A stretch of DNA of 64,000 bases from a virus: positions 32,001 through 96,000 of IMG/VR virus record IMGVR_UViG_3300028412_000004; one strand, given 5' to 3'. Every line of letters begins with the position of its first letter. Position 1 is the first letter of the stretch. Position numbers and translations under genes: made by a program. Of the stretch, positions 5,081 to 60,270 are shown in pieces. The notes beneath the pieces are model-generated. The model had not been told where the DNA came from. It did no database searches and saw nothing but the letters and a program-made list of their open reading frames with translations.

Positions 5081-8035
5081 ATGCCACTGGGTATTAAAGA
5101 CAACGTCATTCAAGATGTTCTGGAAGAAGATGTAGACGTAGAGTTCACCAACTCGAATAAATTCTTTGGGTCGCACGCTAATCTGGTCCCGCTACAGTCG
5201 GCTGTGGCAGCCCCGCGTATATTCTACGGATCCCGCTTCATGAACCAAGCCCTCCCACTTATAGGAGCAGAGGCTCCTTTAGTGCAGAATCTCAACAGTG
5301 ACGATGAGCAGGGTCGCTCGTTCGACGAGCTGCAAGGCCGCGCGTCCGGCGCAGTGTTCTCGGACAGCGATGGACGTGTGAAGGATATTACGCCGGACTA
5401 CATCACCCTCGAAACTCCCGACGGTAAAGAGGTTCGTAGAAACCTCTACAACAACTTTATTTTCAACCGGAAAACTTCCATACATAACACGCCTCTAGTA
5501 GAGCTGGGGCAGTCGGTGAAAGCAGGACAGCTTTTAGCTAAGTCAAACTTCACAGATGATAAAGGCACGCTAGCGATGGGTCGTAATGCTCGCGTAGGCG
5601 TGGTTCCCTACAAAGGCTTCACAATGGATGACTCGATCGCAATTAGCAGCGACTTCGCCGGGAAGCTGTCTAGTGAGCATACCGAGACCTACAGCTTGGA
5701 GAAGGACAAAGTTATTAAAAGCGGCCTAAACCACTTCATCAGCCTGTTCCCGGATAAATACACCAAAGCGCAGAGAGCCACTATAACGCCCGACGGTGTT
5801 GTTAAAAAAGGTACTATCTTACAGGAGGGAGATCCTATGATACTCGCCTCTAAACCTCGTATGGTATCCAGCTCCGCCTCTCAGATGGGTAAGTTGTCGA
5901 AGGTCATGCGGGAGTCCCGCACAGATGCCAGCCAGCTGTGGGAATCCTCGAAGCCTGGTAAGGTGTTGGATGTCGTCAACACGCCCAAAGGTATTAAAGT
6001 TGTTGTACAGTCGATTAAACCTGCAGAGGAAGGTGATAAGATAGTCTACCGCTCCGGTCAGAAAGGGATCATATCTAAGATTATCCCAAACGAGCACATG
6101 CCTCGCACCACTGATGGTAAGCCTCTAGAGGTGCTGCTTAATCCACTCAGCATACCCAGTCGCGTGAACAACTCGATCATCTACGAGATTCTTTTAGGAA
6201 AGATCGCGCAGAAGACTGGTAAACCTATCAAGATGCCTGGCTTCACAAAACCTGGAGAAGAATGGTTCGACATCATACAGCGTGCTCTTGATGAAGCAGG
6301 TCTATCTGACACAGAGGAAGTATTTGATCCAATGTCAGGTAAGACACTGCAGAACCCGATCACCGTCGGCAACGGCTATGTCTTAAAGCTGCACCACACC
6401 GGTGCGTCGAAAGCATCCGCGAGAGGACAAGGAAGTTACTGCTACGACGAAGAAACTGAAGTACTCACTGACACAGGTTGGACAGCGTGGCCTGCTGTAA
6501 ACGCATCTCACAAATTGGCAACTCTCGACGATAGTGACAGTATTGTATTCCAGAAGCCTTCTGAACTCATAGCACAGGACTACTCAGGTGAGATGTATGG
6601 GTTCAAGGAGAGTAATTACATAGACTACCTAGTTACACCAGAACACGACCACTGGGTTAAGTTCCGCGGACCCGTATCTGAATACAGGAGGGTGAAAGCT
6701 AAGGATCTACACGGTAAAATGTTTTATGTAAAGCGGCAGGGCTTTAAATACACAGGAGGAGTAGATCCTAAGAGTACCACCATCCTGGAAGACGGACACG
6801 TCGAGCCTATAAAATTCGACTGGGGCGACTATGTTGAATTCATGGGTTGGTGGCTTACGGAAGGGTCTGTGCGTTTAAATGAGAACACCTCAGAGAATGA
6901 GGTCTACATACGGCAGAGCAAGCACACCAGTGAAGCTAACTTTTACAGAATCCAAAAACTTCTGGATCGTGTGGGCATCGCATACAGGGTCCACACAAAC
7001 AAAGAAAAGCAGAGTTTGGGATTCTGTATGAGCAGTAAGGCGCTGGCTCGACATCTTAAAGAATCCTGCGGTGGATCCGAGTGTGGTAATAAATCCATCA
7101 CACACACACTACTACACGCCTCGTATGCTAGTAGGATGCTTCTATACAATGTCATGATGCTGGGCGATGGTTGTCTAAGCACAGGAGTATACACCACATC
7201 ATCTAAAGCTCTCATAGACACTTTCCAGATCCTGGTAACAGGCTTGGGCTGGTCCGCAGTACCGCACTGCAGGGAAGTAAGGCCGACGACAGATGGCCCT
7301 GTATCGAACCCGGTCTACGAGACTACTACGTCGAAGAAGCGCGCTAACGCGCTGATACAGCAAGCACCTAGATACTCTGGAAAATTTTACACGAAACACT
7401 ACGAAGGTAGAATATATTGCGCAGTCATGGGAGGACGTGGATTACTCTACGTGCGTAGGTGTGGTAAGCCAATGTGGTCCGGTAACTCGCTCGACCAGCA
7501 GCCACTCAAAGGTGGTAGTGAAGGAGGTAAGGCTAAACGCTTCTCCGGGCTAGAGGTCGGCTCAATGCTGTCGGCCGGTGCCTACAAAACTTTACGGGAG
7601 GGCTCCACACTTCGCGGACAGCAGAATGACGAGTATTGGAGGCAGCTACGCCAGGGTAAAACACCCAGACGCCCCGGTGAACCTTTTGTTTGGCGTAAGT
7701 TCCAGACCTTGTTACAGGGCGCTGGTATGAATCCTCGCGACATGGGCGGAGGACAATTACGACTAGGCCCGCTCACCGAGACAGAGCTGCAAAAACGCAA
7801 ACCTTTCGAAATACGCAATGGGAAGATGGTTAACCTAAACTCGCTGGAACCTGAAGCTGGCGGGTTGTTTGACCCCGCTTTGGTAGGGTCTGGTAAGTGG
7901 GGCAAGATTCCGCTCGACATGGCTCTACCAAACCCTGCTTTCGAAAAACCTATACTGCGTTTACTGGGACTTACTCAGAAAGATTTCAACGCTATCATGG
8001 CTGGCGAAATGGAATTACCAGAGCGGTTGCGATAA
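5081..8035 (+). CDS. rpoB: RNA polymerase beta C-terminal part fused to beta' N-terminal part, intein-containing
   Basis: beta motifs GFTMDDSI, GDKIVYRSGQKG, NPLSIPSRVN, YVLKLHH, QQPLKGG; tail resembles beta' start (LRLGPLT..EPEAGGLFD..WGKIPL..NPAF). Confidence 0.92.
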   Translation: MPLGIKDNVIQDVLEEDVDVEFTNSNKFFGSHANLVPLQSAVAAPRIFYGSRFMNQALPLIGAEAPLVQNLNSDDEQGRSFDELQGRASGAVFSDSDGRVKDITPDYITLETPDGKEVRRNLYNNFIFNRKTSIHNTPLVELGQSVKAGQLLAKSNFTDDKGTLAMGRNARVGVVPYKGFTMDDSIAISSDFAGKLSSEHTETYSLEKDKVIKSGLNHFISLFPDKYTKAQRATITPDGVVKKGTILQEGDPMILASKPRMVSSSASQMGKLSKVMRESRTDASQLWESSKPGKVLDVVNTPKGIKVVVQSIKPAEEGDKIVYRSGQKGIISKIIPNEHMPRTTDGKPLEVLLNPLSIPSRVNNSIIYEILLGKIAQKTGKPIKMPGFTKPGEEWFDIIQRALDEAGLSDTEEVFDPMSGKTLQNPITVGNGYVLKLHHTGASKASARGQGSYCYDEETEVLTDTGWTAWPAVNASHKLATLDDSDSIVFQKPSELIAQDYSGEMYGFKESNYIDYLVTPEHDHWVKFRGPVSEYRRVKAKDLHGKMFYVKRQGFKYTGGVDPKSTTILEDGHVEPIKFDWGDYVEFMGWWLTEGSVRLNENTSENEVYIRQSKHTSEANFYRIQKLLDRVGIAYRVHTNKEKQSLGFCMSSKALARHLKESCGGSECGNKSITHTLLHASYASRMLLYNVMMLGDGCLSTGVYTTSSKALIDTFQILVTGLGWSAVPHCREVRPTTDGPVSNPVYETTTSKKRANALIQQAPRYSGKFYTKHYEGRIYCAVMGGRGLLYVRRCGKPMWSGNSLDQQPLKGGSEGGKAKRFSGLEVGSMLSAGAYKTLREGSTLRGQQNDEYWRQLRQGKTPRRPGEPFVWRKFQTLLQGAGMNPRDMGGGQLRLGPLTETELQKRKPFEIRNGKMVNLNSLEPEAGGLFDPALVGSGKWGKIPLDMALPNPAFEKPILRLLGLTQKDFNAIMAGEMELPERLR
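6440..7486 (+). mobile_element. intein with LAGLIDADG homing endonuclease (349 aa)
   Basis: Begins C-YDEETEVLT, ends WSGN before Ser+1; removal restores ARGQGSY-SLDQQP; motifs GWWLTEGS and MMLGDG. Confidence 0.9.
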
Positions 8036-8073
8036 GCTCCAAGGATTGGATTTTCATACATCCTCGGAAATAC

Positions 8074-8106
8074 GCAAAAACGAGTGTTTTCAGGTTATAT
8101 AAAAAT
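8074..8106 (+). promoter_or_regulatory. island-type bipartite motif GCAAAAA-N13-GTTATATAAAAAT
   Basis: Matches 1155-1187 in sequence and spacing. Confidence 0.55.
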
Positions 8107-8171
8107 GTAGAGTAGTGGTTCTATCTACACCACTTTGTTGGAACATGACCTGTGTGTGTTCCTAAAGCCCG

Positions 8172-8797: not shown

Positions 8798-8805
8798 CCT
8801 ACACA

Positions 8806-8850
8806 GGAAAGTGGTGGAGGGCTTCGGCCTTCCACCACTTTCCTTTTTTT
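8806..8850 (+). terminator. rho-independent terminator
   Basis: Long stem closed by a C-UUCG-G loop and followed by seven T. Confidence 0.9.
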
Positions 8851-8870
8851 AGCTATCAGCAGAATTAGGC

Positions 8871-8906: not shown

Positions 8907-9581
8907 ATGGATGTGAACGATTTACCTAGGACAGGTATACACAGTGAAGTAGCGAAGCCCTTATCATCAGGGCTTGCGTTGTTCCTCGCCTCTATCGCTA
9001 ACAGTACGGCGCAAAAAACATACCTGGAGGCTGCTCGCGACAAACTTACAGGTTCAGGATTTAAGGACTGGGGAATTCGTAAATTGATTCAAGCGCGCGC
9101 CCTGGCGAACGGTTACATCCCTCATAACGTGGATAAGCCGGAACACTCCGCGATCATGAATTTTAAAAAGCCTAAATCGATCGGTCCGTTCGAGCTGAAA
9201 GGCGTGCTTGCATCCTCCAAGGATACAGGCCCAGGCGTTATGGCCCACGAGATGGGTCACATACTGCAGAATACTCACCTCCCGACATACTCCCTTTCGC
9301 AACAGGCCCCGTCTTTAGGTACGCTAGGCGTAGCACTACTTCCCGGCAGGCGTGCGAAGTTAACATCTGCAATAGCTGGAGCTGTCGGCGGGCTTCCTAC
9401 ACTAGGTTACGAAGTAGATGCCTCGCGTAGAGGCAGTAACATCTTAGAGAGCTTGGGTTACGACAGCCCAGGCACGGCGTATGTCGGAGTCCCAACTTAC
9501 GCCCTCAATGTGGGTATGCCACTGGGTGCTTACGGCATACGGCAGGCTGTACTCAAAGCATTGACCAAAGGCCGGGCTTAG
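8907..9581 (+). CDS. zincin-like Zn metallopeptidase with hydrophobic Gly-rich helices
   Basis: HEMGH (HExxH) plus downstream YEVDASRRG third-ligand motif. Confidence 0.75.
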   Translation: MDVNDLPRTGIHSEVAKPLSSGLALFLASIANSTAQKTYLEAARDKLTGSGFKDWGIRKLIQARALANGYIPHNVDKPEHSAIMNFKKPKSIGPFELKGVLASSKDTGPGVMAHEMGHILQNTHLPTYSLSQQAPSLGTLGVALLPGRRAKLTSAIAGAVGGLPTLGYEVDASRRGSNILESLGYDSPGTAYVGVPTYALNVGMPLGAYGIRQAVLKALTKGRA

Positions 9582-9595: not shown

Positions 9596-10747
9596 ATGAC
9601 ATCCGTAGATTCAGTAGAAAACGTAGATACGCCTAAACCTAAGCTGACAGGCCCAGCCGCGATTGAGCACGCGCTCACTGGCCTTGATCTTGGTAAATTG
9701 GAGGCGGAGCAGCGCGACATTATTAATAAGAAGCTGGTATCCAAAAGACCTAAGGCTGTGCAGGTGCTTAACGTTCTGGAAGGTCTGAAGCGTAACAACG
9801 TGCAGCCTACTGACTTTCTTATAAAGAACGTCCCTGTGATTCCATCTGAGTTTAGACCGTTCACTGCTATGGGAAACACTTTTGTAGCTGGCGACGCTAA
9901 TGAGCTTTACCGGGACTTAATTGATATGCGAGACGCCCACCGCGAGGAGCGCAGTGTTTTTGGGGATGAGGGTGCAGGGGACTCTAGGATGGGACTCTAT
10001 AACGCGGTTAAAGCGACTTACGGCTACGGAGACCCCGTCAAGACAAAGACCCGGCAGCGCGGTGTGTCAGGGTTTCTTAAAAAGGTAACTGGTAGTAATC
10101 CTAAACATGGTTTTTTCCAGCAGAAGCTTATAGGTAAGACGCAGGATAATGTAGCACGCGGGACCATCGGCGTTAATCCTGACCTCTCCATGGACCAGAT
10201 CGATTTACCTAAAGACATGGCTTGGCGTATGTATGCTCCTTACATTCAACGTAGGCTTGTGCGGGCGGGTGTTGGACCTATGGATGCCATTAAAGGTATT
10301 CGTGATAGAACACCTCTAGCAGAGCGGGCGCTGCAGAAAGAGGTCGAGGAGCGACCGGTTATTTACTCTCGATCGCCAAGCTGGCATAAATACAACGTGC
10401 TCGCAGGACGTCCTAATCTGATCGACGGGGATGCTATCCGTATTAATCCATTCGTAACAACAGGTTTAAATGCTGACTTCGACGGCGATGCCATTAATGT
10501 GCACGTCCCTAGTGAAAGCGAGGTGGTAAAAGAAGCTCTAGAAAAGCTGGCACCTTCAAAACAACTCCTGTCTACGCGAGATCCTACGAGGGTTGTTCCT
10601 TCCTTAAAGCACGAACAGATACTCGGGCTCTACACGGCGAAGCACCGCAAAGGGAACAAGTTTCAATTTTCATCCAAGGAGGCGGCGCTGGCTGCTATCA
10701 AACGAGGTGAAGTATCTCTCAACGATGACATCGCTATAATGAGTTAA
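9596..10747 (+). CDS. rpoC: RNA polymerase beta' central, catalytic fragment
   Basis: NADFDGD motif; VPVIPSEFRP; GFFQQKLIGK; IYSRSPSWH. Confidence 0.95.
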   Translation: MTSVDSVENVDTPKPKLTGPAAIEHALTGLDLGKLEAEQRDIINKKLVSKRPKAVQVLNVLEGLKRNNVQPTDFLIKNVPVIPSEFRPFTAMGNTFVAGDANELYRDLIDMRDAHREERSVFGDEGAGDSRMGLYNAVKATYGYGDPVKTKTRQRGVSGFLKKVTGSNPKHGFFQQKLIGKTQDNVARGTIGVNPDLSMDQIDLPKDMAWRMYAPYIQRRLVRAGVGPMDAIKGIRDRTPLAERALQKEVEERPVIYSRSPSWHKYNVLAGRPNLIDGDAIRINPFVTTGLNADFDGDAINVHVPSESEVVKEALEKLAPSKQLLSTRDPTRVVPSLKHEQILGLYTAKHRKGNKFQFSSKEAALAAIKRGEVSLNDDIAIMS

Positions 10748-18055: not shown

Positions 18056-21000
18056 ATGAAAGCGGTTGATCTGCTCATAGACTCACTCCTACCAGAGGAG
18101 CTACAAGGCACGGTAAAAGACATGGACTCCAAGTCATTGGATATCCTGATGTCAGCTATCGCCACCAAATACCCGGATAAATACGAAGCTATCTCTAAGG
18201 GTATCGCCGACGCTGGTAGGAATGCCAGCTATCTACAGGGTGAGACTATCACCCTCAACGACATGCGCACGCCGTTCGACAAGTCGAGCATACTGGCTGC
18301 CATGGACAAAGAGCTGGACCGGGTTAGACAGGCTAATCCGGAGACATTTCCCAAGACCCGAGTAAAGGTTTGGGAGAAGTATAATGACATCATGCAGAAT
18401 ATGACGAGTCAGAGTGCTCGTGAGAAGAACAATAATTTAGCCTACAGTGTCGTCTCCGGTGCGCGTGGTAAGCCTGCTCAACTTAAAGCTATGCTGGCTA
18501 CACCAGGCTACTACGCCGATTATAAGGGCGACACCATTCCCCTGTTCGTCCGTAACAGCTTCGGCCAGGGACTACGCCCTGCAGAGTTCCTTGCAGGCAC
18601 TTACGGCGCGCGGACTTCCGTCTTGTCGACAAAGAACTCCACCGCCCGTGGTGGGGATTTCGCAAAGCAGCTTGGGCAGAGTGCCGCTTCCACCATTGTG
18701 ACGATGTTGGATTGCGGTGTTAAAAATGGCATAGATCTGGAGCTGGAAGATAGTTCAATGCGCGGGCGTGTGCTGGCAAGAAGCACCGCAGGGGTGCCGG
18801 CCGGTACCATACTGGACAAGCACGCGCTCGGACAACTTCGTAGAAGTAAATCGGATACGGCCGTAGTGCGATCCCCCTTAACCTGTCAGGCTAGGGAAGG
18901 TGTGTGTGCTAAGTGTGTAGGCCAGTTCCACAACAACAAGCTCCCCTCGGTGGGAGATGCTGTAGGTATTACGGCCGCGCAATCGATCTCCGAACCAGTT
19001 ACGCAAGGCGCTCTGAACTGTTTAGCAGAGAACACCGAAGTTCTCATGGGCGACTTTTCCTATAAAAAAATCCAAGACGTCAGAGTTGGGGACATGGTAA
19101 TGGGGGCGGACGTCGAAGCACACTTATTCCCGGTAAAGGTAACACATACATGGGATCAAGGTTTACAGCCCGTCCAGACGTATGGTTACAAGCTGGGGCA
19201 GACGAAGGATATCCGGGAGGTTGTTTGCACAGAGGAGCACAAAATTTTACAGATTACGACCTACAGTAACGCAAAAGAGGGAAAGTTTAATTTCACCCCC
19301 AGGATACTTAAAGCAGGACGCCCCGCTGGGTTACCTTCCGCCGTATTACCCTCTGGGTTCAAAGAAGGTGTAGGAATTGAGGAGGATTTCGCCACGCTTT
19401 ATGGGTTCCACCTGGGAGACGGCATCCGCTTGAGTCCAGAGTGTTTACAAGCCTCCGTGTGTGTTTCTTGCGCTTGCTCCGAGACAGCAGCCGATCTTAA
19501 AACAGAGATGGCTAAGTTGGGCCTCACGATGAAGAAACGTAAGCGTAGCCACGACTGGGCTGTGTCGGATCTACAGAAAGGAACTAGTCTTGTAGACGCT
19601 AAGGGGCAGTTCGAGAAAGGTTTCCATAATCGTTATAAGCTGCTGCTCCAATCATTAGGGGCTTTGCATGAATGCTACCACAATAAAGTAATAGCACCTG
19701 TGGTTTGGGAGTGGGATAACAAGTCTATCGCCAAAATGATTGCCGGGTTTGTGTCCGCGGACGGATCTGTATACAGAGTCAAGGAATTGACACCAGGTGT
19801 GTCTTTTGGATCTACGGCGCTGTCGATGCTGGAAGAGTTGAAGCGCTTACTTGAATTAAGGTTTGGCATCTACAGCACACAACTCACACGAACGTCCCTA
19901 GCCTCTAAGAGCGAAACAAGGAAGCACGACGGCTGGCAATTCTGTATCACACGCCGAGATCAGCTTAAAAAGTTCAACGAACTCATAGCACCATTTATAC
20001 CAGGCCCTAAAAGAGAAAAACTGAGACAATACCTAGAGGAGGCTCCAAAGTCTCACTACGAGACGTCCACTTTCTATAAAGGCCGCCGTATTTACGCCGA
20101 ACCCAAAGGTATGACGCAGTGCTACGACATAACCGTGGACCACAAGGATCATTTGTTCGTGTTAAGAAATGGCTTAATTGTAAGCAACTCCAAGCACACT
20201 GGCGGTATGGCTTCCGGTAAGCGTGAGTATTCTGGCTTCGACGTCATCAATCAACTCGTCCAATCCCCCGAGGTGTTCCCCGACCGCGCCACCGTCGCAC
20301 ATGAGGCCGGTCGCGTGGAGTCCATCACAGAAGCCCCGCAGGGTGGTTTCTACATTAAACTAAATGGGAAGGACCTATACGTACCCGCTGGTTACGACGT
20401 CACTGCAAAGGTCGGTGATAAGGTGGAGGCTGGCGACCAACTCTCCGACGGTATTGTCGACCCTGAGGACATCATGAAGTTGAGAGGGCTGGGGTCCGGT
20501 CGCCGGTATTATGCCGAGCGTCTTAATAAGGCTTTGACCGATTCAGGTATGGCCGTCGATCGTCGCAACGTGGAGCTCGTATCTAGAGGAGCGTTCGATC
20601 ATGTGAAGATACAGGACGACGAGGGTATGCCAGGCTACCTCCCGGACGACGTAGTTAGTTACAATAAACTCACATCACATGCAGCTCCTGCGAAGGACGC
20701 GAAAGGCATGCGCCCGAGTCAGGCTGTGGGTAAGTTCCTGGCGACGCCAGCGCTGCACTACTCGATAGGTACTAAAATCACACCTCGAATGGCAGATAGG
20801 TTAGAGAAGTCTCACTACGATAGCATCTACACCTCCGATAGGGAGCCTAGTTTTACACCACAGTCAGTACGGCTACGCACTGCTGCGCACAGTAATCCTG
20901 ACTGGCTCGCATCCATGGCCACTTCTTACTTGAAAACTCAGCTAGAGCATGCTGCAATACGGGGAGACGATACCAATGTTAACTCAAACGTGCACTTCGG

Positions 21001-21061
21001 ACCTCGTCTAGCAAGAGGGACAGAGTTCGGCAAGGATGTCGCAACAACAGGTAAATTTTAA
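18056..21061 (+). CDS. rpoC: RNA polymerase beta' C-terminal fragment (bridge helix, trigger loop), intein-containing
   Basis: SGARG, GTYGAR, RSPLTC..GVCAKC, VGITAAQSISEPVTQ, HTGG. Confidence 0.93.
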   Translation: MKAVDLLIDSLLPEELQGTVKDMDSKSLDILMSAIATKYPDKYEAISKGIADAGRNASYLQGETITLNDMRTPFDKSSILAAMDKELDRVRQANPETFPKTRVKVWEKYNDIMQNMTSQSAREKNNNLAYSVVSGARGKPAQLKAMLATPGYYADYKGDTIPLFVRNSFGQGLRPAEFLAGTYGARTSVLSTKNSTARGGDFAKQLGQSAASTIVTMLDCGVKNGIDLELEDSSMRGRVLARSTAGVPAGTILDKHALGQLRRSKSDTAVVRSPLTCQAREGVCAKCVGQFHNNKLPSVGDAVGITAAQSISEPVTQGALNCLAENTEVLMGDFSYKKIQDVRVGDMVMGADVEAHLFPVKVTHTWDQGLQPVQTYGYKLGQTKDIREVVCTEEHKILQITTYSNAKEGKFNFTPRILKAGRPAGLPSAVLPSGFKEGVGIEEDFATLYGFHLGDGIRLSPECLQASVCVSCACSETAADLKTEMAKLGLTMKKRKRSHDWAVSDLQKGTSLVDAKGQFEKGFHNRYKLLLQSLGALHECYHNKVIAPVVWEWDNKSIAKMIAGFVSADGSVYRVKELTPGVSFGSTALSMLEELKRLLELRFGIYSTQLTRTSLASKSETRKHDGWQFCITRRDQLKKFNELIAPFIPGPKREKLRQYLEEAPKSHYETSTFYKGRRIYAEPKGMTQCYDITVDHKDHLFVLRNGLIVSNSKHTGGMASGKREYSGFDVINQLVQSPEVFPDRATVAHEAGRVESITEAPQGGFYIKLNGKDLYVPAGYDVTAKVGDKVEAGDQLSDGIVDPEDIMKLRGLGSGRRYYAERLNKALTDSGMAVDRRNVELVSRGAFDHVKIQDDEGMPGYLPDDVVSYNKLTSHAAPAKDAKGMRPSQAVGKFLATPALHYSIGTKITPRMADRLEKSHYDSIYTSDREPSFTPQSVRLRTAAHSNPDWLASMATSYLKTQLEHAAIRGDDTNVNSNVHFGPRLARGTEFGKDVATTGKF
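19019..20188 (+). mobile_element. intein with LAGLIDADG homing endonuclease (390 aa)
   Basis: Begins C-LAENTEV, ends LIVSN before Ser+1; motifs YGFHLGDG and AGFVSADG; removal restores TQGALN-SKHTGG. Confidence 0.92.
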
Positions 21062-31475: not shown

Positions 31476-31522
31476 GTTACGCAACCGGTGATTTACACTA
31501 ACAAAACAACACAGGACTAGTT

Positions 31523-32109: not shown

Positions 32110-33057
32110 ATGTCACAAGAAGAACCACAAATCGAAAACGTGGAAGTACTGAATCGCGAACTTCTAGACTCCATCCGGCAAGCTCCGGACGGCGTCCTTA
32201 CGAAGCAAGCCTCGGCAGCAACGAATATGATCCGCCGCAAAATCCGTGAGAACGGGTTCAGCCGGGTTATTATTCCGCACAAAACCGTGTCCGATGACGA
32301 CCTCTCGTATCTCCCGAATACCGAGCTCCCTGTAGTAGTTGAAGAAATGGAACCAGAATCTACTGGTGCAAAATCCATCTCCTTCAACGACTCCGCGGAT
32401 ACTCGTTTCTACCGTAGTGATAAGTTCGTCGTTATCTTTAACAAGATCACGACAGACGAATACACCAAGAATGTTGATGAGCTGCGTTCCTACAAGGGCG
32501 ATCTCCGAGGCGTTGTCACCGACAATGCCCTTAAGGAAATCCAAACCGAAGAGGACCGCGCATTCATCAGCACCGTCGATCGTCTCGTCGGTACTATTGA
32601 CACTGCTGATGGCGCCACTGGCGGTATTCAACACCATGGTATCGCAGGCGGTATTACCCGGTCATCCTACGTTGATTCGATCTCCTTCTTAGAGGACCGC
32701 GATCTCATCAACGGTATTTTCCTCATGAACCGTAAGACCGCGAAAGCGTTCCTTAAGTTCAAGCGGGACGAAATCGGGGGTGACCTGTCTCAGTCATTGT
32801 TCACTGATGGTCTAAGCTCTCTCTCCGAGGGTAAGGTCATGAGTGTGCGTCACATCTTCACCATCAAGGGTGATTTAGTTCCAAACGATGTTGTTTACCA
32901 ATTCGCGGAACCAAACTACCTTGGACGTGCTTACATTCTTCAGAATGTAACCATGTATGTAGAGAAGAAGAAGGACATCCTTCGATTCTCCGCCATGGAA
33001 AAGATCGGCGTAACCATTGCCAACGTGGCAGCGGTTAACAAGGTCGACTTCAGCTAA
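32110..33057 (+). CDS. major capsid protein (HK97 fold)
   Basis: 315 aa; backbone-helix-like ALKEIQTEEDRAFI; followed by a strong terminator; KQAS near the N-terminus. Confidence 0.8.
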   Translation: MSQEEPQIENVEVLNRELLDSIRQAPDGVLTKQASAATNMIRRKIRENGFSRVIIPHKTVSDDDLSYLPNTELPVVVEEMEPESTGAKSISFNDSADTRFYRSDKFVVIFNKITTDEYTKNVDELRSYKGDLRGVVTDNALKEIQTEEDRAFISTVDRLVGTIDTADGATGGIQHHGIAGGITRSSYVDSISFLEDRDLINGIFLMNRKTAKAFLKFKRDEIGGDLSQSLFTDGLSSLSEGKVMSVRHIFTIKGDLVPNDVVYQFAEPNYLGRAYILQNVTMYVEKKKDILRFSAMEKIGVTIANVAAVNKVDFS

Positions 33058-33080
33058 GCGATAGTCTAAAACCACATTCC

Positions 33081-33118
33081 AAAGGCCGCTCCTTCACCGG
33101 GGCGGCCTTTTCATTTTC
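33081..33118 (+). terminator. rho-independent terminator after the capsid gene
   Basis: AAAGGCCGCTCC / GGGGCGGCCTTT stem followed by a T-rich tail. Confidence 0.85.
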
Positions 33119-36386: not shown

Positions 36387-38468
36387 ATGAGCATCGCAAA
36401 TTACGTAAGACCTCAGCTGACCATTAAGCAGCTTTTAGACCGCACTCCGGACACTGTAGGGGATCACTTGAACACCCTTTTAATTGGGGCTGAGTACTTC
36501 CTTAACATTTACGACGAGCTGGACATTCCTGGAGTGACTTTTGCAGCTGAGTCGGCAAGTCAAACTTTGGATTTTACATATTTCGACGAGCTTAAAACCA
36601 CTCAAGAGTTGGATCACGGCGACTACACAGTCGACGAGGATTCTATCAGAGTGTTTGCAGAAGACTTGGAGGCTGTCGTAGCCACGTTCCTAGCGGACGG
36701 CACGACCGCAGGTAACCAATTCACAGTTCCCGGAGACTTATCTGTTCTTAATTTGACAGAAGTTGGCGCAGGCGATGTCGCTCCTTATGTGCGTGGGGCC
36801 TCTCTGGCCGGAGAGCTTGACGGACGCAATGTCTCTCTCGGAGACAGCGTGCGTATCACAGACGCTGATGGTGTTAAGCGTGTACGTACAGTTGTAGGAT
36901 TCGCATCCGCGACGGTCGACGCGCAGGAACTCAATCAGATCATATTAAGCGGTCCAGCGGTCGGCGCGGGACACCTGCCTGCTGACAAAGTACTTGTTGA
37001 TATCTTCCTTAAGTGGAGCGGCGAACTTACAGACTTCTCCCTCGAAGATCCAATCACAGGGGGTGTCACACTTGCCTCCGGACAATCTCTAAATGTTGTC
37101 GACAAAACAACTACTACAGTAGTTTTCTCGGACAACGTTGGTAAGGTTTACCTAAGCTATCGTGCTCTCGAAGAGCCCGCCTCCGGTGAAGGAATCCTTG
37201 AAATAAAATCAGTTACAGACATCTTCAATCAACTAGGGAGAATTTCCCTTTACAACGATCTGGCCTTTGCAGCCAATGAGGCTCTCAACGGCTCGCAAGG
37301 CAAACCTATCAAAGTACTTAAAGTAGCCTCCGATGACCTTGATGGCTTTCTTGAAGTTCTTCCGAAGATCGAAACCACGGATATGGTTTATGCCATTGCA
37401 GCTATCACGACCAATACGGACGCGATCGAAGCAGTTGTAAATCACGCAGAGGTAATGTCCAGTGAGGTTAACAAGAAGTTCCGCCGAGTTTACTTCGGCA
37501 CTGACAGTCCTGGTGATTACCTTAAAGCTACGAAGGACACCAGCGGATCCCCGATTCTAGTAACTATCGGAGCAGCTGGAGGTTCCGGGATTATAACACA
37601 GGTGACCACCACCAGCGCGGGAATCAACTTCCTCTCGCTTGGGTTAGTTGATGGAGACTTCCTTATGGTAGGCGGGACCAAGCATATCGTTGAGGAAGTT
37701 ATCGACGCTACCACACTGCTGCTTAAGACAGCCACAGCGGCTGTAACCGACGTGAGTGCGGAGATCTGGAAGGCTGACACCCCTAGGAGTCAAATTGAAT
37801 ACGTAGCGGATATTTCAAAAGGTATCGCCAGCCGGCGCGCCGCTAACATATGGACCGAGGGCGGCACACGCATACTCGGCGGAGAGACTACCTCCATACC
37901 TAACAGGTTCCTCGCCGCTGAGATTGCCGGACTTCGCTCCGCGCTGTTGCCGCAACAAGGCCTCACACGCACAGAAATCACCGCGATCACCGATGCCCCG
38001 GACATGTATATCCGTTACACCCCTACCATGCTCGACGATCTCGCTGCAGAGGGTGTGTTCATCGTAACGCAGGAAGTAGAGAACGGTGACGTATTCATCA
38101 GACACCAGCTCACCACTGACGTATCCAGTGGAAGCCTCTACTACGAGGACAGCGTCGGAACAAACATCGACAACATCTCCTATATCATTAAGGACACCCT
38201 TGATGGCTACATCGGAAGACGCAACGTCAACAGGGCGACTTTAGTCGAGATTCGTGGCAATATGTATGAGATACTTAAGAGTCAGACTCTTGCAGATGCA
38301 GGCTTCGACAGGTCAATCGGTCCAGCCCTTATAGGCTTTGACAATCTTGTGGTAGAAGCTGACGACGTTCTTAAGGACCGTATTAAGGTCTTTGCACGCG
38401 GGCTTATACCACTTCCACTCAACAACATCGCGGCGGCCCTTCAAGGTGCTGTAGATGTGAACATTTAA
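36387..38468 (+). CDS. contractile tail sheath protein
   Basis: 693 aa; sheath-like C-terminus (FIRHQLTT..EDSV..NIDNISY..DGYIG); followed by a tube-sized gene. Confidence 0.8.
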   Translation: MSIANYVRPQLTIKQLLDRTPDTVGDHLNTLLIGAEYFLNIYDELDIPGVTFAAESASQTLDFTYFDELKTTQELDHGDYTVDEDSIRVFAEDLEAVVATFLADGTTAGNQFTVPGDLSVLNLTEVGAGDVAPYVRGASLAGELDGRNVSLGDSVRITDADGVKRVRTVVGFASATVDAQELNQIILSGPAVGAGHLPADKVLVDIFLKWSGELTDFSLEDPITGGVTLASGQSLNVVDKTTTTVVFSDNVGKVYLSYRALEEPASGEGILEIKSVTDIFNQLGRISLYNDLAFAANEALNGSQGKPIKVLKVASDDLDGFLEVLPKIETTDMVYAIAAITTNTDAIEAVVNHAEVMSSEVNKKFRRVYFGTDSPGDYLKATKDTSGSPILVTIGAAGGSGIITQVTTTSAGINFLSLGLVDGDFLMVGGTKHIVEEVIDATTLLLKTATAAVTDVSAEIWKADTPRSQIEYVADISKGIASRRAANIWTEGGTRILGGETTSIPNRFLAAEIAGLRSALLPQQGLTRTEITAITDAPDMYIRYTPTMLDDLAAEGVFIVTQEVENGDVFIRHQLTTDVSSGSLYYEDSVGTNIDNISYIIKDTLDGYIGRRNVNRATLVEIRGNMYEILKSQTLADAGFDRSIGPALIGFDNLVVEADDVLKDRIKVFARGLIPLPLNNIAAALQGAVDVNI

Positions 38469-53635: not shown

Positions 53636-56047
53636 ATGCCACTTAATTTTAAACCTTTAGAGTTGCAAAAAACTGATATCTTCATCGAAACCGGAACACA
53701 TGTAGGAAACACTATAGCGAAGATAAAAGACGACTACAGTGAGATACACACTGTGGAAATAGTGCCGGAGTGTTACGAAGCTGTAAGGAAGAAATATACA
53801 ACTGACCCCCACATAAATTTTCACTTAGATGATTCCCCAACAGGACTTACCAAAATACTAAAGAATGTAACAACACCAGTTACATTCTGGCTAGACGCGC
53901 ATGTCCAAGATATGTCCCAGCCCGCCGGGACAGGGGCTCCTTTATTGGAGGAGTTGGAAGTTATTAAAAATCACGTTGTGAAAACACACATGCTATTAAT
54001 AGACGACGTGCGCCTTTTCAAAAAGTATGGGACTACGGTGGAAAAGGTTAAGAGTAAAATACTGGAGATTAACAAAGACTACACATTCGAATTCGGTCGA
54101 GGTTACATTGCTAATGACGTGTTAATAGCAAGAGTAGGAGGTGCTAAAACCAAAGAGAACAATACCACAATGTTGAGTGAAGCTTTAAGAATATTAAAGG
54201 ATACCGGTCACCCGACTCGCAGCGTTGTGCATGTAGGCATGCATAACGCTACGGAAGTTGACGCCTACAAACGTGCCGGATTTTCGGATATTGTATACAT
54301 AGAAGCTGACGAAGCACTTTGTGTCGCGCAGGCAGGGCGGAAAGATATAGAGGTCATCAACGCAGTGGTTAGCGACGTGGAAGGGGAGGTCTCGTTTTAT
54401 AAAGCTTCGAACCGGGGTGTATCCTCGTCTATTTTAAAACCAACCGCGCACCTGGATAACTTTCGTAATGTAAAGTTCGACGCCCCGGTAAAGCTCAGAG
54501 CAGAAACACTGGATCAGGCGCTTCAACGCTCCGGCAACTATAACGCGGATACAATAGACTTACTGGTATTAGACATCCAGGGAGCAGAGCTTCTCGCACT
54601 TAAATCATTTTCAGATCTACACAAGGTAGCTGTGGTGAAGGTAGACGTGCATACGAAAAGCTTCTACAAAGGCGCCACCACAATAAATTCGCTGTTAAAT
54701 TTCTTCACCAAAAATAATTTCAGAATGGTTAAATATAGCAGATCTAAATACGGATCGGCTATATTTGTGAACTCCGCGCGACGGCAAGTGCGGGATTACA
54801 CTTTTGCAGTGCCTGTTAACGAGCCCTACTACGCCGGGTCGCACGGGGGCTTGATGGATCAAATCCTTGCAATGTTTGAGAATAGGTTGTACGCCGAGAC
54901 AGCTCTGAACACTCGTGTAGCCTTTAGGGTGACTGTCAACGACCACTGTCCAGGTTCTCTATTGGATTTCTTCGAGCCTATACCTCGTGTAACTTATTTC
55001 AACGATGAGGCGCCTTACAGTGAGCCCTTCGCACACAATAGGTCCCCCAGGTGGTTGTCTAGGTATCCCAACGCTAGTATAATTGCACGCACTCAAGATC
55101 TTAAAGTCAAACCTAAGATCGAACAACATGTTATAGACATACTGAACAACAACCCTAACCTACTAGCGGTACATGTCCGAAAAACAGATAGAGGCTGGCG
55201 ACACCGCCTCTCACTAAATACAAAAGAAGTCTACAGAAGATGCGACGAGCATACCGGCCCTATATACTTAGCGACGTGCTCTCCCGCGATACAGCGTAGT
55301 ATGGCGGAACGATACGGAGGGCGTCTCGTCAGTTTTGGTCCTGTCGAGAATAAAGGTGGTCGTAGGTGTACCAGCCTAGAACACGCGGTCGTAGACCTCG
55401 CCGTATGCTTAGAAGCGCCTGAATCGCTACCAGATCCTTGCAGCGGGTGGTGTTACTTTACAAGAGCATTCAGGGAGGCGGGCAACTCCCTTTTAAAGAC
55501 TTCTAAAAGTCTGGCACTTAAAAAGGAGGTTAAGATAATTAGTTTCTATTCTGAGCCAGAGGAGTTCTCGACTTATTACACCAAGCACAGCCAGCGCTTC
55601 GTCGAAAATTGTCGTCAACTCGGGTTGGATTGTTTTGTAGAACACTTGGAGGGACACGGCGATTACTGTAAAAATACGCTTCTTAAACCTAAATTTATAA
55701 AAGAATGTTTATTGAAATTTAAAACGCCTGTTTTGTGGTTAGACGTAGACTCTACTCTAGAAACTAGACCTGACTTCAACAGCTTCAGAGATAGTGACTT
55801 TGCAGCCGTCAGACAGCGCAGTAAGTTGGGACTGCATGCTTACTGTTTGTATTTTAACGATACGGCAAAGTCACACGAGATACTGGATAGGTGGATTGCT
55901 AAATGCGCTGCGTGCGAGGACCCGCTCACGGCAGATCACCAGCATCTGGCGTGGTCGGTAGAAAAGAAAGACATACACTTTATGAAAACAGCCCCAAAAT
56001 TAGTGTTCTCACCTAAGTCCGAGATTGTAAGTAAGAAATGGACGTAA
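53636..56047 (+). CDS. four-domain fusion: SAM methyltransferase, FkbM-type methyltransferase, fucosyltransferase-like GT-B domain, DxD glycosyltransferase
   Basis: FIETGTHVG..FWLDAH; HVGMH..IEAD..LDIQGAEL; LAVHVRKTD..IYLAT; VLWLDVD. Confidence 0.75.
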   Translation: MPLNFKPLELQKTDIFIETGTHVGNTIAKIKDDYSEIHTVEIVPECYEAVRKKYTTDPHINFHLDDSPTGLTKILKNVTTPVTFWLDAHVQDMSQPAGTGAPLLEELEVIKNHVVKTHMLLIDDVRLFKKYGTTVEKVKSKILEINKDYTFEFGRGYIANDVLIARVGGAKTKENNTTMLSEALRILKDTGHPTRSVVHVGMHNATEVDAYKRAGFSDIVYIEADEALCVAQAGRKDIEVINAVVSDVEGEVSFYKASNRGVSSSILKPTAHLDNFRNVKFDAPVKLRAETLDQALQRSGNYNADTIDLLVLDIQGAELLALKSFSDLHKVAVVKVDVHTKSFYKGATTINSLLNFFTKNNFRMVKYSRSKYGSAIFVNSARRQVRDYTFAVPVNEPYYAGSHGGLMDQILAMFENRLYAETALNTRVAFRVTVNDHCPGSLLDFFEPIPRVTYFNDEAPYSEPFAHNRSPRWLSRYPNASIIARTQDLKVKPKIEQHVIDILNNNPNLLAVHVRKTDRGWRHRLSLNTKEVYRRCDEHTGPIYLATCSPAIQRSMAERYGGRLVSFGPVENKGGRRCTSLEHAVVDLAVCLEAPESLPDPCSGWCYFTRAFREAGNSLLKTSKSLALKKEVKIISFYSEPEEFSTYYTKHSQRFVENCRQLGLDCFVEHLEGHGDYCKNTLLKPKFIKECLLKFKTPVLWLDVDSTLETRPDFNSFRDSDFAAVRQRSKLGLHAYCLYFNDTAKSHEILDRWIAKCAACEDPLTADHQHLAWSVEKKDIHFMKTAPKLVFSPKSEIVSKKWT

Positions 56048-56128
56048 TCAAAAATAATAATTGCTACCCTGAATGAATCAAGAGACTCTGTAGCATCTTC
56101 CCATTAAACCCACACTAGCGCTACTACA

Positions 56129-57490
56129 ATGCTGCACGCCGCTTTAAAAATATTCAAGGATACTGGACACCCGACTCGCAGCGTTGTGCATGTGGGTATG
56201 GGGCGTATGGACGAGTTATCACACTACAAAAAAACAGGATTCTCCAACGTCCTGTTCGTAGAAGCTGACGAAGTGCTTTGTGTCGCGCAGGCAGGTCGGA
56301 AAGATGTGGAAATCATCAACGCTGTAATCAGTGACGTTGCCGAAGAGGTCTCGTTTTATAGAGCTTCGAACCGGGGCCTGTCCTCATCTATCCTAAAGCC
56401 AGAAAAGCATATAAAACACTTCCCAGGTGTAAAGTTCGCCGCCCCGGTAAAGCTCAGAGCAGAAACACTGGATCAGGCGCTTCAACGCTCTAATAACTAT
56501 AACTCGGATACCATAGACTTACTGGTATTAGACATCCAGGGAGCAGAGCTTCTCGCGCTTAAATCATTTTCAGATCTGCACAAGGTAGCTGTGGTGCAGT
56601 TGGAAGTAAACTTTGTGGAGCTGTACAAGGGTGGCGCTAAAATGAACGAAACACTAGAATTCTTCTACAAAAACAATTTTAGACTGGTTAAATTCAATAG
56701 CACTAGGCATGGGTACGGGGATGCAATTTTTGTAAACTCCTCCAGGTGGCAGGTGGCGGATTACACTTTTGTGGTTCATACTGCTGAGCCTTTTTGTACA
56801 CGTGTAGAGGGTGGTATGGTGGACCAACTAGGGCACATATTTAAAGGACGTCTATTTGCTGAGACAAGCGCAGGCGTCTATTTAGAGACTAGCTTAAGAA
56901 GCCTCCACACTCCCGGTCGCGGAGGTATCTTTGACTTCTTTGAGCCTATAGCTCGTGTAAATTTCAGCAAGCAGCCGAGGAAAGACGCGTGTATGTTTAA
57001 ACAGCATGAGCCTTGGTGTAATGCGAAGAATCACTGGAGCATAACAGCGCGCGCTGGGGATCTTAAAGTAAAACCTAAGATCGAACAACATGTTATAGCC
57101 ATACTGAATAACAATCCGAACCTGTTAGCGGTACATGTCCGCAGGGGTGATAAAGGTTGGGAAAACCCGCTCGCGGTTTCTATGGAGGAAGTCCTTCACA
57201 GGTGCGACGCTCATGACGGTCCTATCTATCTCGCAACGGATACCCCCGAAGTCCAGCAAGACATGATACAACGTTACGGGGAAAGACTCATTTATTTCGA
57301 CACCGTGCGCCCCTCGTCTTCGTGGAGGAAGACAAGCCTAGAACACGCGGTTGTAGACCTCGCCGTATGTGTAGAAGCTCCCGAAGTGTTGCCAGACACG
57401 TGCAGTGGTTGGTATCACTTGATTACAGCTTTCAGAGAAGTAGGAGCTTCCCTGCTGCGTACTTCAAAAAAGCACACCCCAAGCGCGTGA
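56129..57490 (+). CDS. FkbM-type methyltransferase plus fucosyltransferase-like (NodZ/POFUT-type) domain
   Basis: LDIQGAEL; LAVHVRRGDK; IYLATDT; paralog of the middle of 53636..56047. Confidence 0.8.
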   Translation: MLHAALKIFKDTGHPTRSVVHVGMGRMDELSHYKKTGFSNVLFVEADEVLCVAQAGRKDVEIINAVISDVAEEVSFYRASNRGLSSSILKPEKHIKHFPGVKFAAPVKLRAETLDQALQRSNNYNSDTIDLLVLDIQGAELLALKSFSDLHKVAVVQLEVNFVELYKGGAKMNETLEFFYKNNFRLVKFNSTRHGYGDAIFVNSSRWQVADYTFVVHTAEPFCTRVEGGMVDQLGHIFKGRLFAETSAGVYLETSLRSLHTPGRGGIFDFFEPIARVNFSKQPRKDACMFKQHEPWCNAKNHWSITARAGDLKVKPKIEQHVIAILNNNPNLLAVHVRRGDKGWENPLAVSMEEVLHRCDAHDGPIYLATDTPEVQQDMIQRYGERLIYFDTVRPSSSWRKTSLEHAVVDLAVCVEAPEVLPDTCSGWYHLITAFREVGASLLRTSKKHTPSA

Positions 57491-57499
57491 ATAGAAACC

Positions 57500-58042
57500 A
57501 TGCATAAGAAACCTATGTCACCACAAACAGCTTGCAATAAGGCCAAGACCGCATTCCCGGAAGACCCTGACGAAGCTCTAGGTCCTATAGTCCGGATGCA
57601 GTGGCTCATGATCAAATCCCGCAGAAAAGGTCTAAGTGAGGAGGAGTTCCGGGAATACGTTGACATAGTGGACAAGAACTCCGAAGAGATATCGAAGTGG
57701 CACGAACGCTGGTTGTGCTCAGTGTTTGACACCTACGCTGAGAATGGTGAAGCTGTTTTTCTCGTGTTTAGTGTGATGCGTATGATGGAAAAGATGGCGT
57801 GTCCGCGTAAGAGTATTTCTGATCAATTTGTACGTTCCGTAAGTCTGAACAACATGGACATACACACAGCACTGGCGTATAGGATAAAAAAACTTCAGAA
57901 AGGGCACCCTTACATGTCTAAACTTACAACCAGTATGCTTAAACAAATCGAAGCAGATAAAGGATCTGTATTGGGCCGAGTTTCTCTTCTAAGGAAGCCT
58001 GGTGAGTCTGTTGTAGACGGTATGAATCGTATACTAAAATGA
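57500..58042 (+). CDS. hypothetical helical protein
   Basis: 180 aa ORF, overlaps the next gene. Confidence 0.6.
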   Translation: MHKKPMSPQTACNKAKTAFPEDPDEALGPIVRMQWLMIKSRRKGLSEEEFREYVDIVDKNSEEISKWHERWLCSVFDTYAENGEAVFLVFSVMRMMEKMACPRKSISDQFVRSVSLNNMDIHTALAYRIKKLQKGHPYMSKLTTSMLKQIEADKGSVLGRVSLLRKPGESVVDGMNRILK

Positions 58043-58629
58043 TTGATCTGACTAGAAATTGGGTGTTCCTGCATCCTTCCAAGACGGGCGGCTCCTCTGT
58101 AGAAGTAGCTTTGATGGAAAGTGCCTTAAACACTGGATCTGAGGTGGAATCAGTCTTCGGTCCTCTTTTCGCGGTGTGGGGTCCCGATGGTAAGCAGCAC
58201 TGGTCCTACGAGAAGATGGTATGCCATTTTCACTTTACCGCACATTGGAAGAAGTTTGCGACAGTCCGCCACCCTTACACACGTGTGCTATCTGAGTTTC
58301 GCTATCAGCTCTCCGGTAACAGACGCAAGGATGGTAACCAGGAGTGCTACGCCTCCGCTGATATTAACGCAGCTATAAAGTCTAAGACTTTGTGGCGCTG
58401 CGCGTGGCCCTGGCACGGTATGTCGCAATTTGCATACCTTAGCGACGACGTTGAGTTAATACGGTTCGAGAACCTTACGGAGGATTTTAAAAAAGTGACA
58501 GGGCTGGACAACCTCAAACATGTGCTGAAATCGCCTGAGGTTGAGCTTGACGAGCTGGACGATGAGTCTAAATCTATCATTCAGAAGAAATTTCCTTTGG
58601 ATTTTCTGAAACTAAACTACGATCCATAA
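58039..58629 (+). CDS. sulfotransferase (Sulfotransfer_2-like)
   Basis: FLHPSKTGGSSV and FATVRHPYTRVLSEFRY. Confidence 0.85.
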   Translation: MIDLTRNWVFLHPSKTGGSSVEVALMESALNTGSEVESVFGPLFAVWGPDGKQHWSYEKMVCHFHFTAHWKKFATVRHPYTRVLSEFRYQLSGNRRKDGNQECYASADINAAIKSKTLWRCAWPWHGMSQFAYLSDDVELIRFENLTEDFKKVTGLDNLKHVLKSPEVELDELDDESKSIIQKKFPLDFLKLNYDP

Positions 58630-58632
58630 TAT

Positions 58633-59013: not shown

Positions 59014-59368
59014 AAACTTGCATCTGTTCCGTATGGTGGACGGTAAAAAAACACCAGTAATTATAACCGTGGACAAAGACATGATTATTCTGTCCGAGCG
59101 CGAAGACGGTGCGTCCAACCAAGGCATTATTATGGGGGACCGGTTCGATGAGGAAGGTAATAAGATAGGGCTCGCGATACAGCCAGGGGAGTCGGAAGTT
59201 CTCAGATTCTTTACACCGGGATACAAATGTACGACCGCGGGGTGTCAAAAGCTCCATGATGAGTATCAACGGAAAGTAGATACTGCTAAAGCCGCTAATT
59301 GTAAAAACTGCGAGTTAGGGGCCTTGATAAGAGAATACGCCCCTAGGGTGCGAGAGATCCTAAAGTAA
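59003..59368 (+). CDS. small Cys-motif protein
   Basis: CTTAGC and CKNC. Confidence 0.6.
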   Translation: MSTRNLHLFRMVDGKKTPVIITVDKDMIILSEREDGASNQGIIMGDRFDEEGNKIGLAIQPGESEVLRFFTPGYKCTTAGCQKLHDEYQRKVDTAKAANCKNCELGALIREYAPRVREILK

Positions 59369-59541
59369 TGGAATTACCTGGATTAGATGCGGATCTGCAG
59401 CGTAAGCTGGCTGTAGAGATCTCTAGACCCGGTTGCAGATCCTGCGCCAAGTCTAAAACTATCCGAAAGTATAAAAAAATCCAGGACGCTCGAAATGCAT
59501 CCCCACAAAACAACCTTGATAAGAAGCGTAATCACAGGTAG
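59368..59541 (+). CDS. 57 aa basic CxxC protein, not in the ORF track
   Basis: TAATG coupling; translated by hand as MELPGLDADLQRKLAVEISRPGCRSCAKSKTIRKYKK.. Confidence 0.55.
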   Translation: MELPGLDADLQRKLAVEISRPGCRSCAKSKTIRKYKKIQDARNASPQNNLDKKRNHR

Positions 59542-59550
59542 CTATAGTAT
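59516..59550 (+). promoter_or_regulatory. TTGATA promoter candidate before the sigma gene
   Basis: TTG 35 nt before GTG 59551. Confidence 0.4.
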
Positions 59551-60270
59551 GTGGATACCAATGAACCCTTAGAACCTTACGACCGCTGGAAGCAAGATCC
59601 CTCTCCTGGAAACCTCAAGGTTGCTGTGGATAGTCTCTCTCCGACGATCGACAATGTCCTGCGCAGTATAGGAGCTGCGGGTGATCCGTATCTAAAAACA
59701 AAGGCCAGAGTTCTGGCGTCTGGTGCGGTAAAGTCCTACGATCCGCAGTATGGGGCCAATATGCACACCTGGGTGTCCCGCCAGCTTTTACCTCTACGAC
59801 GCATGAAGCGCCGAAACCAATCCGTTGTCGATATTCCTGAGAGTATCCAACTGGACGCCTTTAAACTTATGAAGGCTGAGAATAAATTCTTAGATGAGAA
59901 CGACCGGGAGCCTGATCTTATTGAGCTCTCTGATATCACAAACCTCCCGAAGAAACGCATAGAGAAGGTGAGGGCGCTGCAGATGCCCACGCCCGCTGAG
60001 GGGGCTTATGTCGATGATTCAGGAGCTGCGGTAGGCCTTCCGGGAGGTAATTCCGACTACTTATCTGAGGCGATGGATTACGTCTACCACGACCTAGATT
60101 ATACAGACCGTAAGATCATGGAGTATAAATCAGGTTATGGCGGCTCCAGAATACTCCCATCGATCGAAATTGCTAAGAGGTTAAAACTGACACCGTCGCA
60201 ACTCACCCGACGCAGCGCTAAACTAGGGTATAAAGTGCAGGAAATCGAGAACGCACTATCCAGCACATGA
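59551..60270 (+). CDS. sigma70-family sigma factor (regions 2, 3 and 4; FliA/SigF-like size)
   Basis: AVKSYDPQYGANMHTWV (region 2), DREPDLIELSDIT (region 3), IEIAKRLKLTPSQL (region 4 HTH). Confidence 0.85.
   Translation: MDTNEPLEPYDRWKQDPSPGNLKVAVDSLSPTIDNVLRSIGAAGDPYLKTKARVLASGAVKSYDPQYGANMHTWVSRQLLPLRRMKRRNQSVVDIPESIQLDAFKLMKAENKFLDENDREPDLIELSDITNLPKKRIEKVRALQMPTPAEGAYVDDSGAAVGLPGGNSDYLSEAMDYVYHDLDYTDRKIMEYKSGYGGSRILPSIEIAKRLKLTPSQLTRRSAKLGYKVQEIENALSST

Follow-up and report, generated by a model that had tools for sequence, protein, structure and literature searches.

We analyzed a 64-kb window (the whole stretch of DNA under study, bases 32001-96000 of the linear 125.5-kb IMG/VR viral contig IMGVR_UViG_3300028412_000004) and found that it encodes, among the structural genes of an uncultured tailed phage, three pieces of a bacterial-type multisubunit RNA polymerase, two of them interrupted by inteins, as well as a small sigma70-family factor. 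We consider it probable (a little over 60%) that this phage assembles its own split core, which works with a dedicated sigma factor, is packed into the virion and starts transcription. Specifically, a single bacterial-type catalytic core would be built from at least five polypeptides (two beta N-terminal pieces encoded off the contig, a beta-C/beta'-N piece, a beta' middle piece and a beta' C-terminal piece), two of which would first be made as precursors that shed LAGLIDADG inteins by protein splicing. The ancestor of the lineage was apparently a beta-beta' fusion, into which new cuts were introduced later; this would account for the absence of a break at the classical beta/beta' boundary. 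The small sigma70-family factor would most likely bind the beta' clamp coiled-coil and the beta flap and steer the core to phage promoters. Core and sigma would be made alongside the virion proteins, packed in the particle and injected with the DNA, and the host enzyme would not be needed for the start of transcription.

The polymerase pieces are encoded by three open reading frames (ORFs) on the + strand, and Pfam domains bear out the first-pass annotation of these ORFs as the beta C-half with the beta' N-terminus, the beta' catalytic centre, and the beta' bridge helix, trigger loop and C-terminus. The first ORF (5081..8035; 984 amino acids, 635 once spliced) matches Rpb2_6 (E 1.2e-53) as well as LAGLIDADG_3, and contains the beta double-psi barrel, the flap and the beta C-terminus, followed by about 100 amino acids of the beta' N-terminus. 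Its N-extein can be aligned to beta chains in the PDB (E 9e-43), starting near Thermus residue 527, equivalent to about residue 640 of E. coli beta, and this alignment contains the catalytic GQKGIISK motif and a flap of conserved length. A profile of the C-extein, made from 14 orthologues, covers the final ~85 beta residues (E. coli 1255-1338) and then directly beta' 6-56 (E about 5e-4, with many chains). Since the profile runs from the end of beta into beta' 6-56 without a gap, the end of one subunit and the beginning of the other are joined directly, without a linker; the zinc-ribbon cysteines are missing from the beta' part. The second ORF (9596..10747; 383 amino acids; Rpb1_2, E 3e-20, and Rpb1_1) encodes the beta' middle piece, with the clamp coiled-coil, the catalytic barrel with an intact NADFDGD motif and the start of domain 3, and its alignment with Salmonella and Enterococcus beta' begins at the clamp coiled-coil. 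In bacterial beta', this coiled-coil is the docking site of sigma region 2. The third ORF (18056..21061; 1001 amino acids, 611 once spliced; Rpb1_5, E 2.8e-16, and Rpb1_4) encodes the bridge helix, the trigger loop, and the C-terminal clamp and jaw region, and carries a Hom_end_hint and LAGLIDADG_3 insert; it is the orthologue of gp216 of Salmonella phage Arash (OQ632216), the nearest cultured phage.

The places at which the polymerase is cut are only partly as described in the first-pass annotation, which called them non-canonical. Fused relatives read straight across the break between the first and second ORFs with zero sequence lost. The break between the beta' middle and C-terminal pieces does not fit that description: it is no more than ~25 residues away from the rpoC1/rpoC2 break of melainabacteria and no more than ~70 from that of picocyanobacteria, and is not non-canonical. 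Between the first two polymerase genes lies a gene for a 224-amino acid HExxH protein (8907-9581; AHEMGH, with hydrophobic stretches), a homologue of which adjoins the beta' middle gene in two relatives (L010 and L020). We considered whether this protein could be a homing endonuclease or an accessory of the polymerase, and found nothing to support either role.

Both interrupting elements are class-1 inteins with a LAGLIDADG endonuclease, and intein-free orthologues define the exact ends of each. The first (6440..7486, +; 349 amino acids, residues 454-802 of the 984-amino acid ORF) interrupts the conserved beta motif GQGSY/S, between Y and S, and has Cys1, a TPEH block B, a C-terminal Asn and a +1 Ser; a 655-amino acid intein-free orthologue (L015) is contiguous across the site. 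The second (19019..20188, +; 390 amino acids, residues 322-711 of the 1001-amino acid ORF) has Hint and LAGLIDADG domains, Cys1, a TxxH block B, a terminal Asn and a +1 Ser, and splits the trigger loop at TQGALN/SKHTGG (N then S), three residues ahead of the conserved His. A 612-amino acid intein-free orthologue (L011) is contiguous across this site, and removal of the intein in silico restores the trigger loop of the beta' C-terminal piece. Because the intein lies inside the trigger loop, splicing is required for polymerase activity.

We looked for the remaining subunits in the rest of the contig, which is a fragment with an estimated completeness of 66%, and in its relatives. The beta N-half was not found on the contig with PF04565, PF04563, the N-terminus of Arash gp206 or the corresponding pieces of relatives, and neither alpha (PF01000) nor omega (PF01192) gave a match at E<=1 on this contig or in four complete relatives, although the same alpha and omega models matched in 14/14 cellular control genomes. 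Two candidates for the beta N-half were set aside: a single 14-bit match on the antisense strand of a ligase gene, which we took as chance, and ORF 2793-5057, which is low-complexity, rich in Gly, Ala and Pro, and has no Pfam or PHROG match. The beta fork domain, by contrast, is encoded by all five near-complete relatives. The distance between it and the beta' middle gene is 28-61 kb in G001-G004, and G005 has it within one fused gene of 1,506 amino acids; in G001 the beta N-half is made up of two adjacent ORFs (359 and 229 amino acids) that match Arash gp206 29-164 and 259-469. The search for the absent subunits that the first-pass annotation had called for recovered the beta N-half in relatives and recovered none of the three in this contig. 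From synteny with G002 and G004, we expect the beta N-half gene of this phage to lie beyond both of its assembled contigs, the second of which (161 kb, ENA) extends the sequence rightward only; zero of the stand-alone fork-piece homologues listed came from the 161-kb contig. Each of the five near-complete relatives has one Rpb2_6 (beta barrel) gene, as does this contig, and since there is exactly one per relative, the polymerase set is single.

The same pieces recur widely in viral metagenomes, in hundreds of clusters with 50-60% identity and invariant catalytic residues. At E<=1e-10, the beta' middle piece has relatives in 228 clusters, many of them stand-alone proteins of 375-390 amino acids on contigs of up to 224 kb, and the stand-alone beta fork piece of relatives is found in 414 clusters. 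We surveyed around 26 viral contigs and found that the polymerase genes are arranged in several ways: as a full beta-beta' fusion in a single polypeptide of 2,082-2,527 amino acids, as two genes in the style of Arash, as a beta-C/beta'-N/beta'-middle protein of 1,008-1,030 amino acids with separate further pieces, or in the more fragmented form of the window, with inteins at various sites.

To place this lineage, we compared it with bacterial enzymes and with those of the phiKZ and AR9 phages. Identity to bacterial beta' was flat, at 29-34% across the 80 best bacterial loci from many phyla. In the beta' tree, 42 bacterial sequences from 15 phyla fell on one side of a branch (support 96), and Arash, Vibrio phage D69, and the fused and split phage forms made up a 40-row clade (support 100, stem 1.06), with the split forms as a 23-row subclade inside it (support 99). 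An independent tree of the beta piece gave the same bipartition (support 100) and a broadly congruent internal order. When the trees were midpoint-rooted, the split forms nested in clades whose remaining members are fused. The trees are unrooted, since phiKZ and AR9 could not be aligned as outgroups and archaeal sequences were absent. The distance from phiKZ and AR9 was apparent from Pfam scores: with PF00623, phiKZ had no match at E<=1 and the best stretch of AR9 scored 17.6 bits, compared to 73.5 bits for the piece in the window. As judged by these trees, recent capture from any sampled bacterial phylum is excluded and antiquity is not established. The pieces did not nest within one host rpoB/rpoC lineage, and the comparisons support, at the level of sequence, the earlier proposal of a distinct phage lineage, separate from bacterial rpoB/rpoC and from phiKZ/AR9. 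This lineage is far closer to the bacterial enzymes than the phiKZ and AR9 polymerases are. In the same beta' tree, the cultured Rhizobium phage RHph_TM30 (L139) and Vibrio phages 1.031.O (L141) and Va2 (L142), whose full-length beta'-like proteins of ~1,130-1,260 amino acids are encoded in replication modules, formed long branches outside both the bacteria and the Arash-type clade, and may represent further undescribed phage polymerase lineages.

The sigma factor is encoded at 59551..60270 (+) as a protein of 239 amino acids with sigma2, sigma3 and sigma4 regions. Scores for the single sequence were weak (Pfam r3, E 0.005; PHROG 351, E 5e-6), but a 41-member profile matched RpoD, SigA, SigF and RpoS at E 7e-15 to 1e-12 over regions 2.2 to 4.2, and aligned with S. 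aureus SigB over its full length. An AlphaFold model (predicted local distance difference test score of 92) had top 50 Foldseek matches that were nearly all sigma70-family chains. The family has 1,160 representative-level relatives or clusters. The orthologue in Arash is gp10 (234 amino acids; 28% identity, E 1e-15), and a tblastn search against 50,697 phage records returned Arash only, and not the sigma of Yersinia ruckeri phage YerA41. We found the small sigma in all five near-complete relatives, each of which also carries the phage polymerase; G001 and G003 encode an additional large RpoD-like sigma. The stop codon of the sigma gene overlaps the start of the next gene by 4 nucleotides, and the second gene downstream (61002..62765, +; 587 amino acids) encodes a Baseplate-J-like protein. 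This protein has no Pfam match; its resemblance is a lead from the ESM Atlas, with feature scores of 0.95-0.98 to Baseplate_J clusters and a structural TM of up to 0.52, and with no E-value. The profile matches and this neighbor agree with the prediction of a sigma70-type factor among baseplate genes.

The polymerase and sigma genes sit in what is the structural-gene block of an uncultured tailed phage distantly related to Arash. Nearly all genes of the window are on the + strand, and a blastn search of the stretch against cultured phages gave zero nucleotide matches. By tblastn, matches were found to Arash gp206, gp216, gp10, gp226, gp218, gp222, gp233, gp234, gp236 and gp1, in shared order, such that homologues of Arash structural proteins verified by mass spectrometry (MS) sit between and after the polymerase pieces. 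Among them are a major capsid protein homologue (32110..33057, +; 315 amino acids; 26% identity to Arash gp226, E 1.5e-24), which marks a head module downstream of the polymerase genes, and a homologue of Arash gp236 (36387..38468, +; 693 amino acids; tblastn E 5.6e-13; a 148-amino acid ORF follows), which is probably a tail protein; the homologue of the Arash terminase lies outside the window. Very few window proteins could be named, and since most virion genes remained without a name after PHROGs and Pfam scans, the structural context relies on homology to Arash and on the one ESM Atlas lead. In Arash virions, gp206 is the protein most detected by MS, gp216 and the sigma gp10 are also present, and gp236 as well as gp10 are among the MS-verified structural genes (PMC10585845). 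Similarly, YerA41 encodes beta, beta' and a sigma whose gene lies among late structural genes, and its particles contain the polymerase subunits and the late-expressed sigma, as detected by liquid chromatography-tandem MS (PMC7354516). By analogy with these relatives, it is plausible that the polymerase of this phage is packaged in the virion, and late expression is likewise suggested by the relatives only.

Several observations weigh against a self-assembled, sigma-dependent and virion-packed enzyme. The beta N-half is absent from the contig; both inteins lack the usual penultimate His and have Gly or Ser instead; both trees are unrooted quick maximum-likelihood searches with long branches and a long stem, leaving unset the depth of the lineage and the direction of fusion and fission; evidence of packaging comes only from relatives with 26-34% identity; and the aromatic residues of sigma region 2.3 that melt the -10 element are poorly conserved in the family consensus. 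Moreover, phage sigmas classically redirect the host core, as do T4 gp55 and SPO1 gp28 and gp34. The small sigma might serve the host polymerase, with the phage polymerase initiating with another factor or none. Every characterised phage-encoded sigma70-family factor does act on the host core (PMC7598289), and the extra RpoD-like sigma in G001 and G003, like gp196 in Arash, means that sigmas and cores are not matched one-to-one. We nevertheless regard this arrangement as unlikely, because the small sigma is always found together with a phage core, in all five near-complete relatives and in Arash; Arash virions co-package the two; the phage enzyme retains the beta' clamp coiled-coil and a beta flap tip of conserved length; and it would be strange for a sigma to travel in the virion if its partner did not. 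Co-occurrence, co-packaging in Arash and the retained docking elements thus argue for pairing of the sigma with the phage core. We attach a similarly low probability to the idea that the polymerase is not packaged at all and is a non-virion enzyme for middle or late genes, placed among structural genes as a matter of layout. Nothing in the sequence proves packaging, three YerA41 polymerase subunit genes are expressed early (PMC7354516), and in G001 the pieces are 66 kb apart on opposite strands, such that linkage to virion genes is not conserved. Set against this, the Arash orthologues are among its most abundant virion proteins by MS (PMC10585845), the YerA41 subunits and sigma are particle-associated (PMC7354516), and with a single polymerase set per genome, host-independent early genes would need delivery of the enzyme with the DNA.

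Two further explanations are contradicted by the data. If the pieces were recently captured, decaying and non-working copies of host rpoB/rpoC, then the fragmentation of the genes and the loss of the beta N-half from the contig would be readily understood. This is scarcely credible, however, given the flat identity of 29-34% to every sampled bacterial phylum, the separation of bacteria from phage at supports of 96 and 100, the conservation of the pieces and their catalytic residues across hundreds of clusters, the clean break points without sequence loss, and the broad congruence of the beta and beta' trees. It is also highly improbable that the enzyme is a divergent member of the phiKZ/AR9-type non-canonical virion polymerases, which it resembles in its split subunits, the lack of alpha and omega, and its probable delivery in the virion. 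The PF00623 scores separate the two, a tblastn search gave only a weak partial match to an AR9-like phage (E 9e-7), and this phage has one polymerase set and a sigma70-family factor. The most likely reading is still a split bacterial-type core that would be packaged with its own sigma.

Intergenic regions of the window contain several short elements that resemble transcription signals. The sequence TT[GC]ACACTT occurs on the + strand at 2756, 14226, 25468 and 33116, in all four cases in a short intergenic gap, 19-43 nucleotides before the start codon of a structural-module gene (5 total matches compared to 1.1 expected), and a related sequence, TTTACACTA, is found at 31492. TT[GC]ACACTT is similar to TTGACA, the -35 box of sigma70, and may belong to a promoter of the phage. 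When k-mers were searched for a shared promoter, only weak candidates emerged. A 14-mer, TTTCAGGTTATATA, occurs exactly and in intergenic sequence twice, at window 8088-8101 and contig 99572-99585, in each case with GCAAAAA 7-8 nucleotides upstream; with these two copies alone, TTTCAGGTTATATA is a weak candidate for a promoter-like element. GC-rich hairpins followed by T-runs, similar to intrinsic terminators, are found at window ~2215-2250, ~8815-8860 and ~33075-33110, of which the first follows the ORF that ends at 2204, the second lies in the gap between polymerase genes one and two, and the third is directly 3' of the capsid gene; two of these hairpins are followed by the same word, CTATCAGC. 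The start codons that we examined are without a Shine-Dalgarno sequence and have A/T-rich surroundings such as ATTATG, which hints at a host in which Shine-Dalgarno use is weak, such as a member of the Bacteroidota. In k-mer contexts, we also noted intergenic tRNA-like sequences in the left arm of the contig, outside the window, at ~15.5 kb and ~22.5 kb.

Other genes between the polymerase pieces or near the tail genes were unexpected (13394-14212, 15159-16229, 16231-17031, 53636-57490 and 58039-58629). They encode a papain-like C1 peptidase, a BspA-type leucine-rich-repeat protein, two sulfotransferase-like proteins, FkbM-type methyltransferase-domain proteins and a glucosyltransferase-like protein, and may modify the virion surface or a glycan. 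Beyond the window, the terminase large subunit and the DnaB-like helicase of this phage are also intein-bearing, and its family-A DNA polymerase is split in two ORFs, the first of which is fused to a uracil-DNA-glycosylase-like domain (contig 101673-104327, -; 113522-115822, +; 118712-121156 and 122420-124189, +). The intein load of this phage is unusually high.

In reviews, large phages fall into groups that have either a divergent multisubunit polymerase without a sigma or a sigma without a polymerase (PMC7598289, PMC7824862, PMC13282480), and this lineage, with both a polymerase and a sigma, is unlike either. In a literature search we found no paper that treats the lineage as a class; only descriptive reports of Arash and YerA41 came up. 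What is new here is the split pattern, the inteins and the large metagenomic clade, the combination of polymerase and sigma having already been glimpsed in isolates. Tentatively, and with the balance of our judgment somewhat against it, we suggest that a global clade of phages, mostly of 160-225 kb, may carry a complete and self-contained bacterial-style transcription system that is delivered in the virion, with an enzyme that would branch outside every bacterial phylum sampled and be a deep sister of bacterial RNA polymerase instead of a gene captured from a host. On the same tentative footing, the clade would share one core, free of alpha and omega, which was once a fusion, has been repeatedly re-cut and invaded by inteins, and works with its own sigma70-family factors. 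If true, a deep-sister clade with its own sigma would overturn the rule that polymerase phages have no sigma and sigma phages no polymerase. The lineage is common in metagenomes and includes phages in culture (Arash and Vibrio phage D69), and is therefore bench-testable. It offers a natural series, from a single 2,100-amino acid chain to five or more pieces, of the cuts, fusions and inteins that a bacterial-type polymerase tolerates; a core without alpha and omega is a minimal system for studies of assembly; the sigma is compact, at 239 amino acids; and the lineage might supply synthetic biology with orthogonal sigma-core pairs.

Cellular enzymes keep alpha2, omega and the beta' zinc ribbon, whereas in this phage alpha and omega were not detected and the zinc-ribbon cysteines are missing. 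Some bacteria tolerate an rpoB-rpoC fusion (Helicobacter, Wolbachia), and rpoC is split into rpoC1 and rpoC2 in cyanobacteria and plastids; compared to these variants, the phage enzyme has extra breaks inside beta and after ~100 amino acids of beta'. Like this phage, phiKZ and AR9 have split homologues of beta and beta', lack alpha and omega, and deliver one set in the virion. In contrast, they have two paralogous sets (virion and non-virion) rather than one; their sequences are extremely divergent from cellular enzymes rather than clearly bacterial-like; and they use gp68- or gp226-type factors, which have no sequence similarity to sigma, where this phage has a true sigma70-family factor. Indeed, phiKZ-type genomes have no sigma70-family factor (PMC7824862). 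YerA41 (MW570730), the genome of which is ~145 kb and could not be sequenced as DNA (PMC7354516), has a beta homologous to that of this phage at 26% identity, and is more distant than Arash. Complete relatives of this phage have genomes of ~200 kb. In Arash, gp206 (1,525 amino acids) comprises beta and beta' through the catalytic centre and gp216 (606 amino acids) the beta' C-terminal piece; these are orthologues of the beta and beta' pieces described here at 32-34% identity. The two phages have in common the location of the polymerase genes in the structural module, the same break between the beta' middle and C-terminal pieces, and a capsid, a terminase and several virion proteins, although for most of their remaining proteins no similarity can be recognised; a second sigma of Arash, the RpoS-like gp196, was not found on this contig. 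The unannotated Vibrio phages D69, D181 and D148 have the Arash layout, with beta and beta' orthologues in two genes in D69. Compared to Arash and D69, the phage studied here has the first of these two polymerase genes cut into at least four, and carries two inteins in the enzyme.

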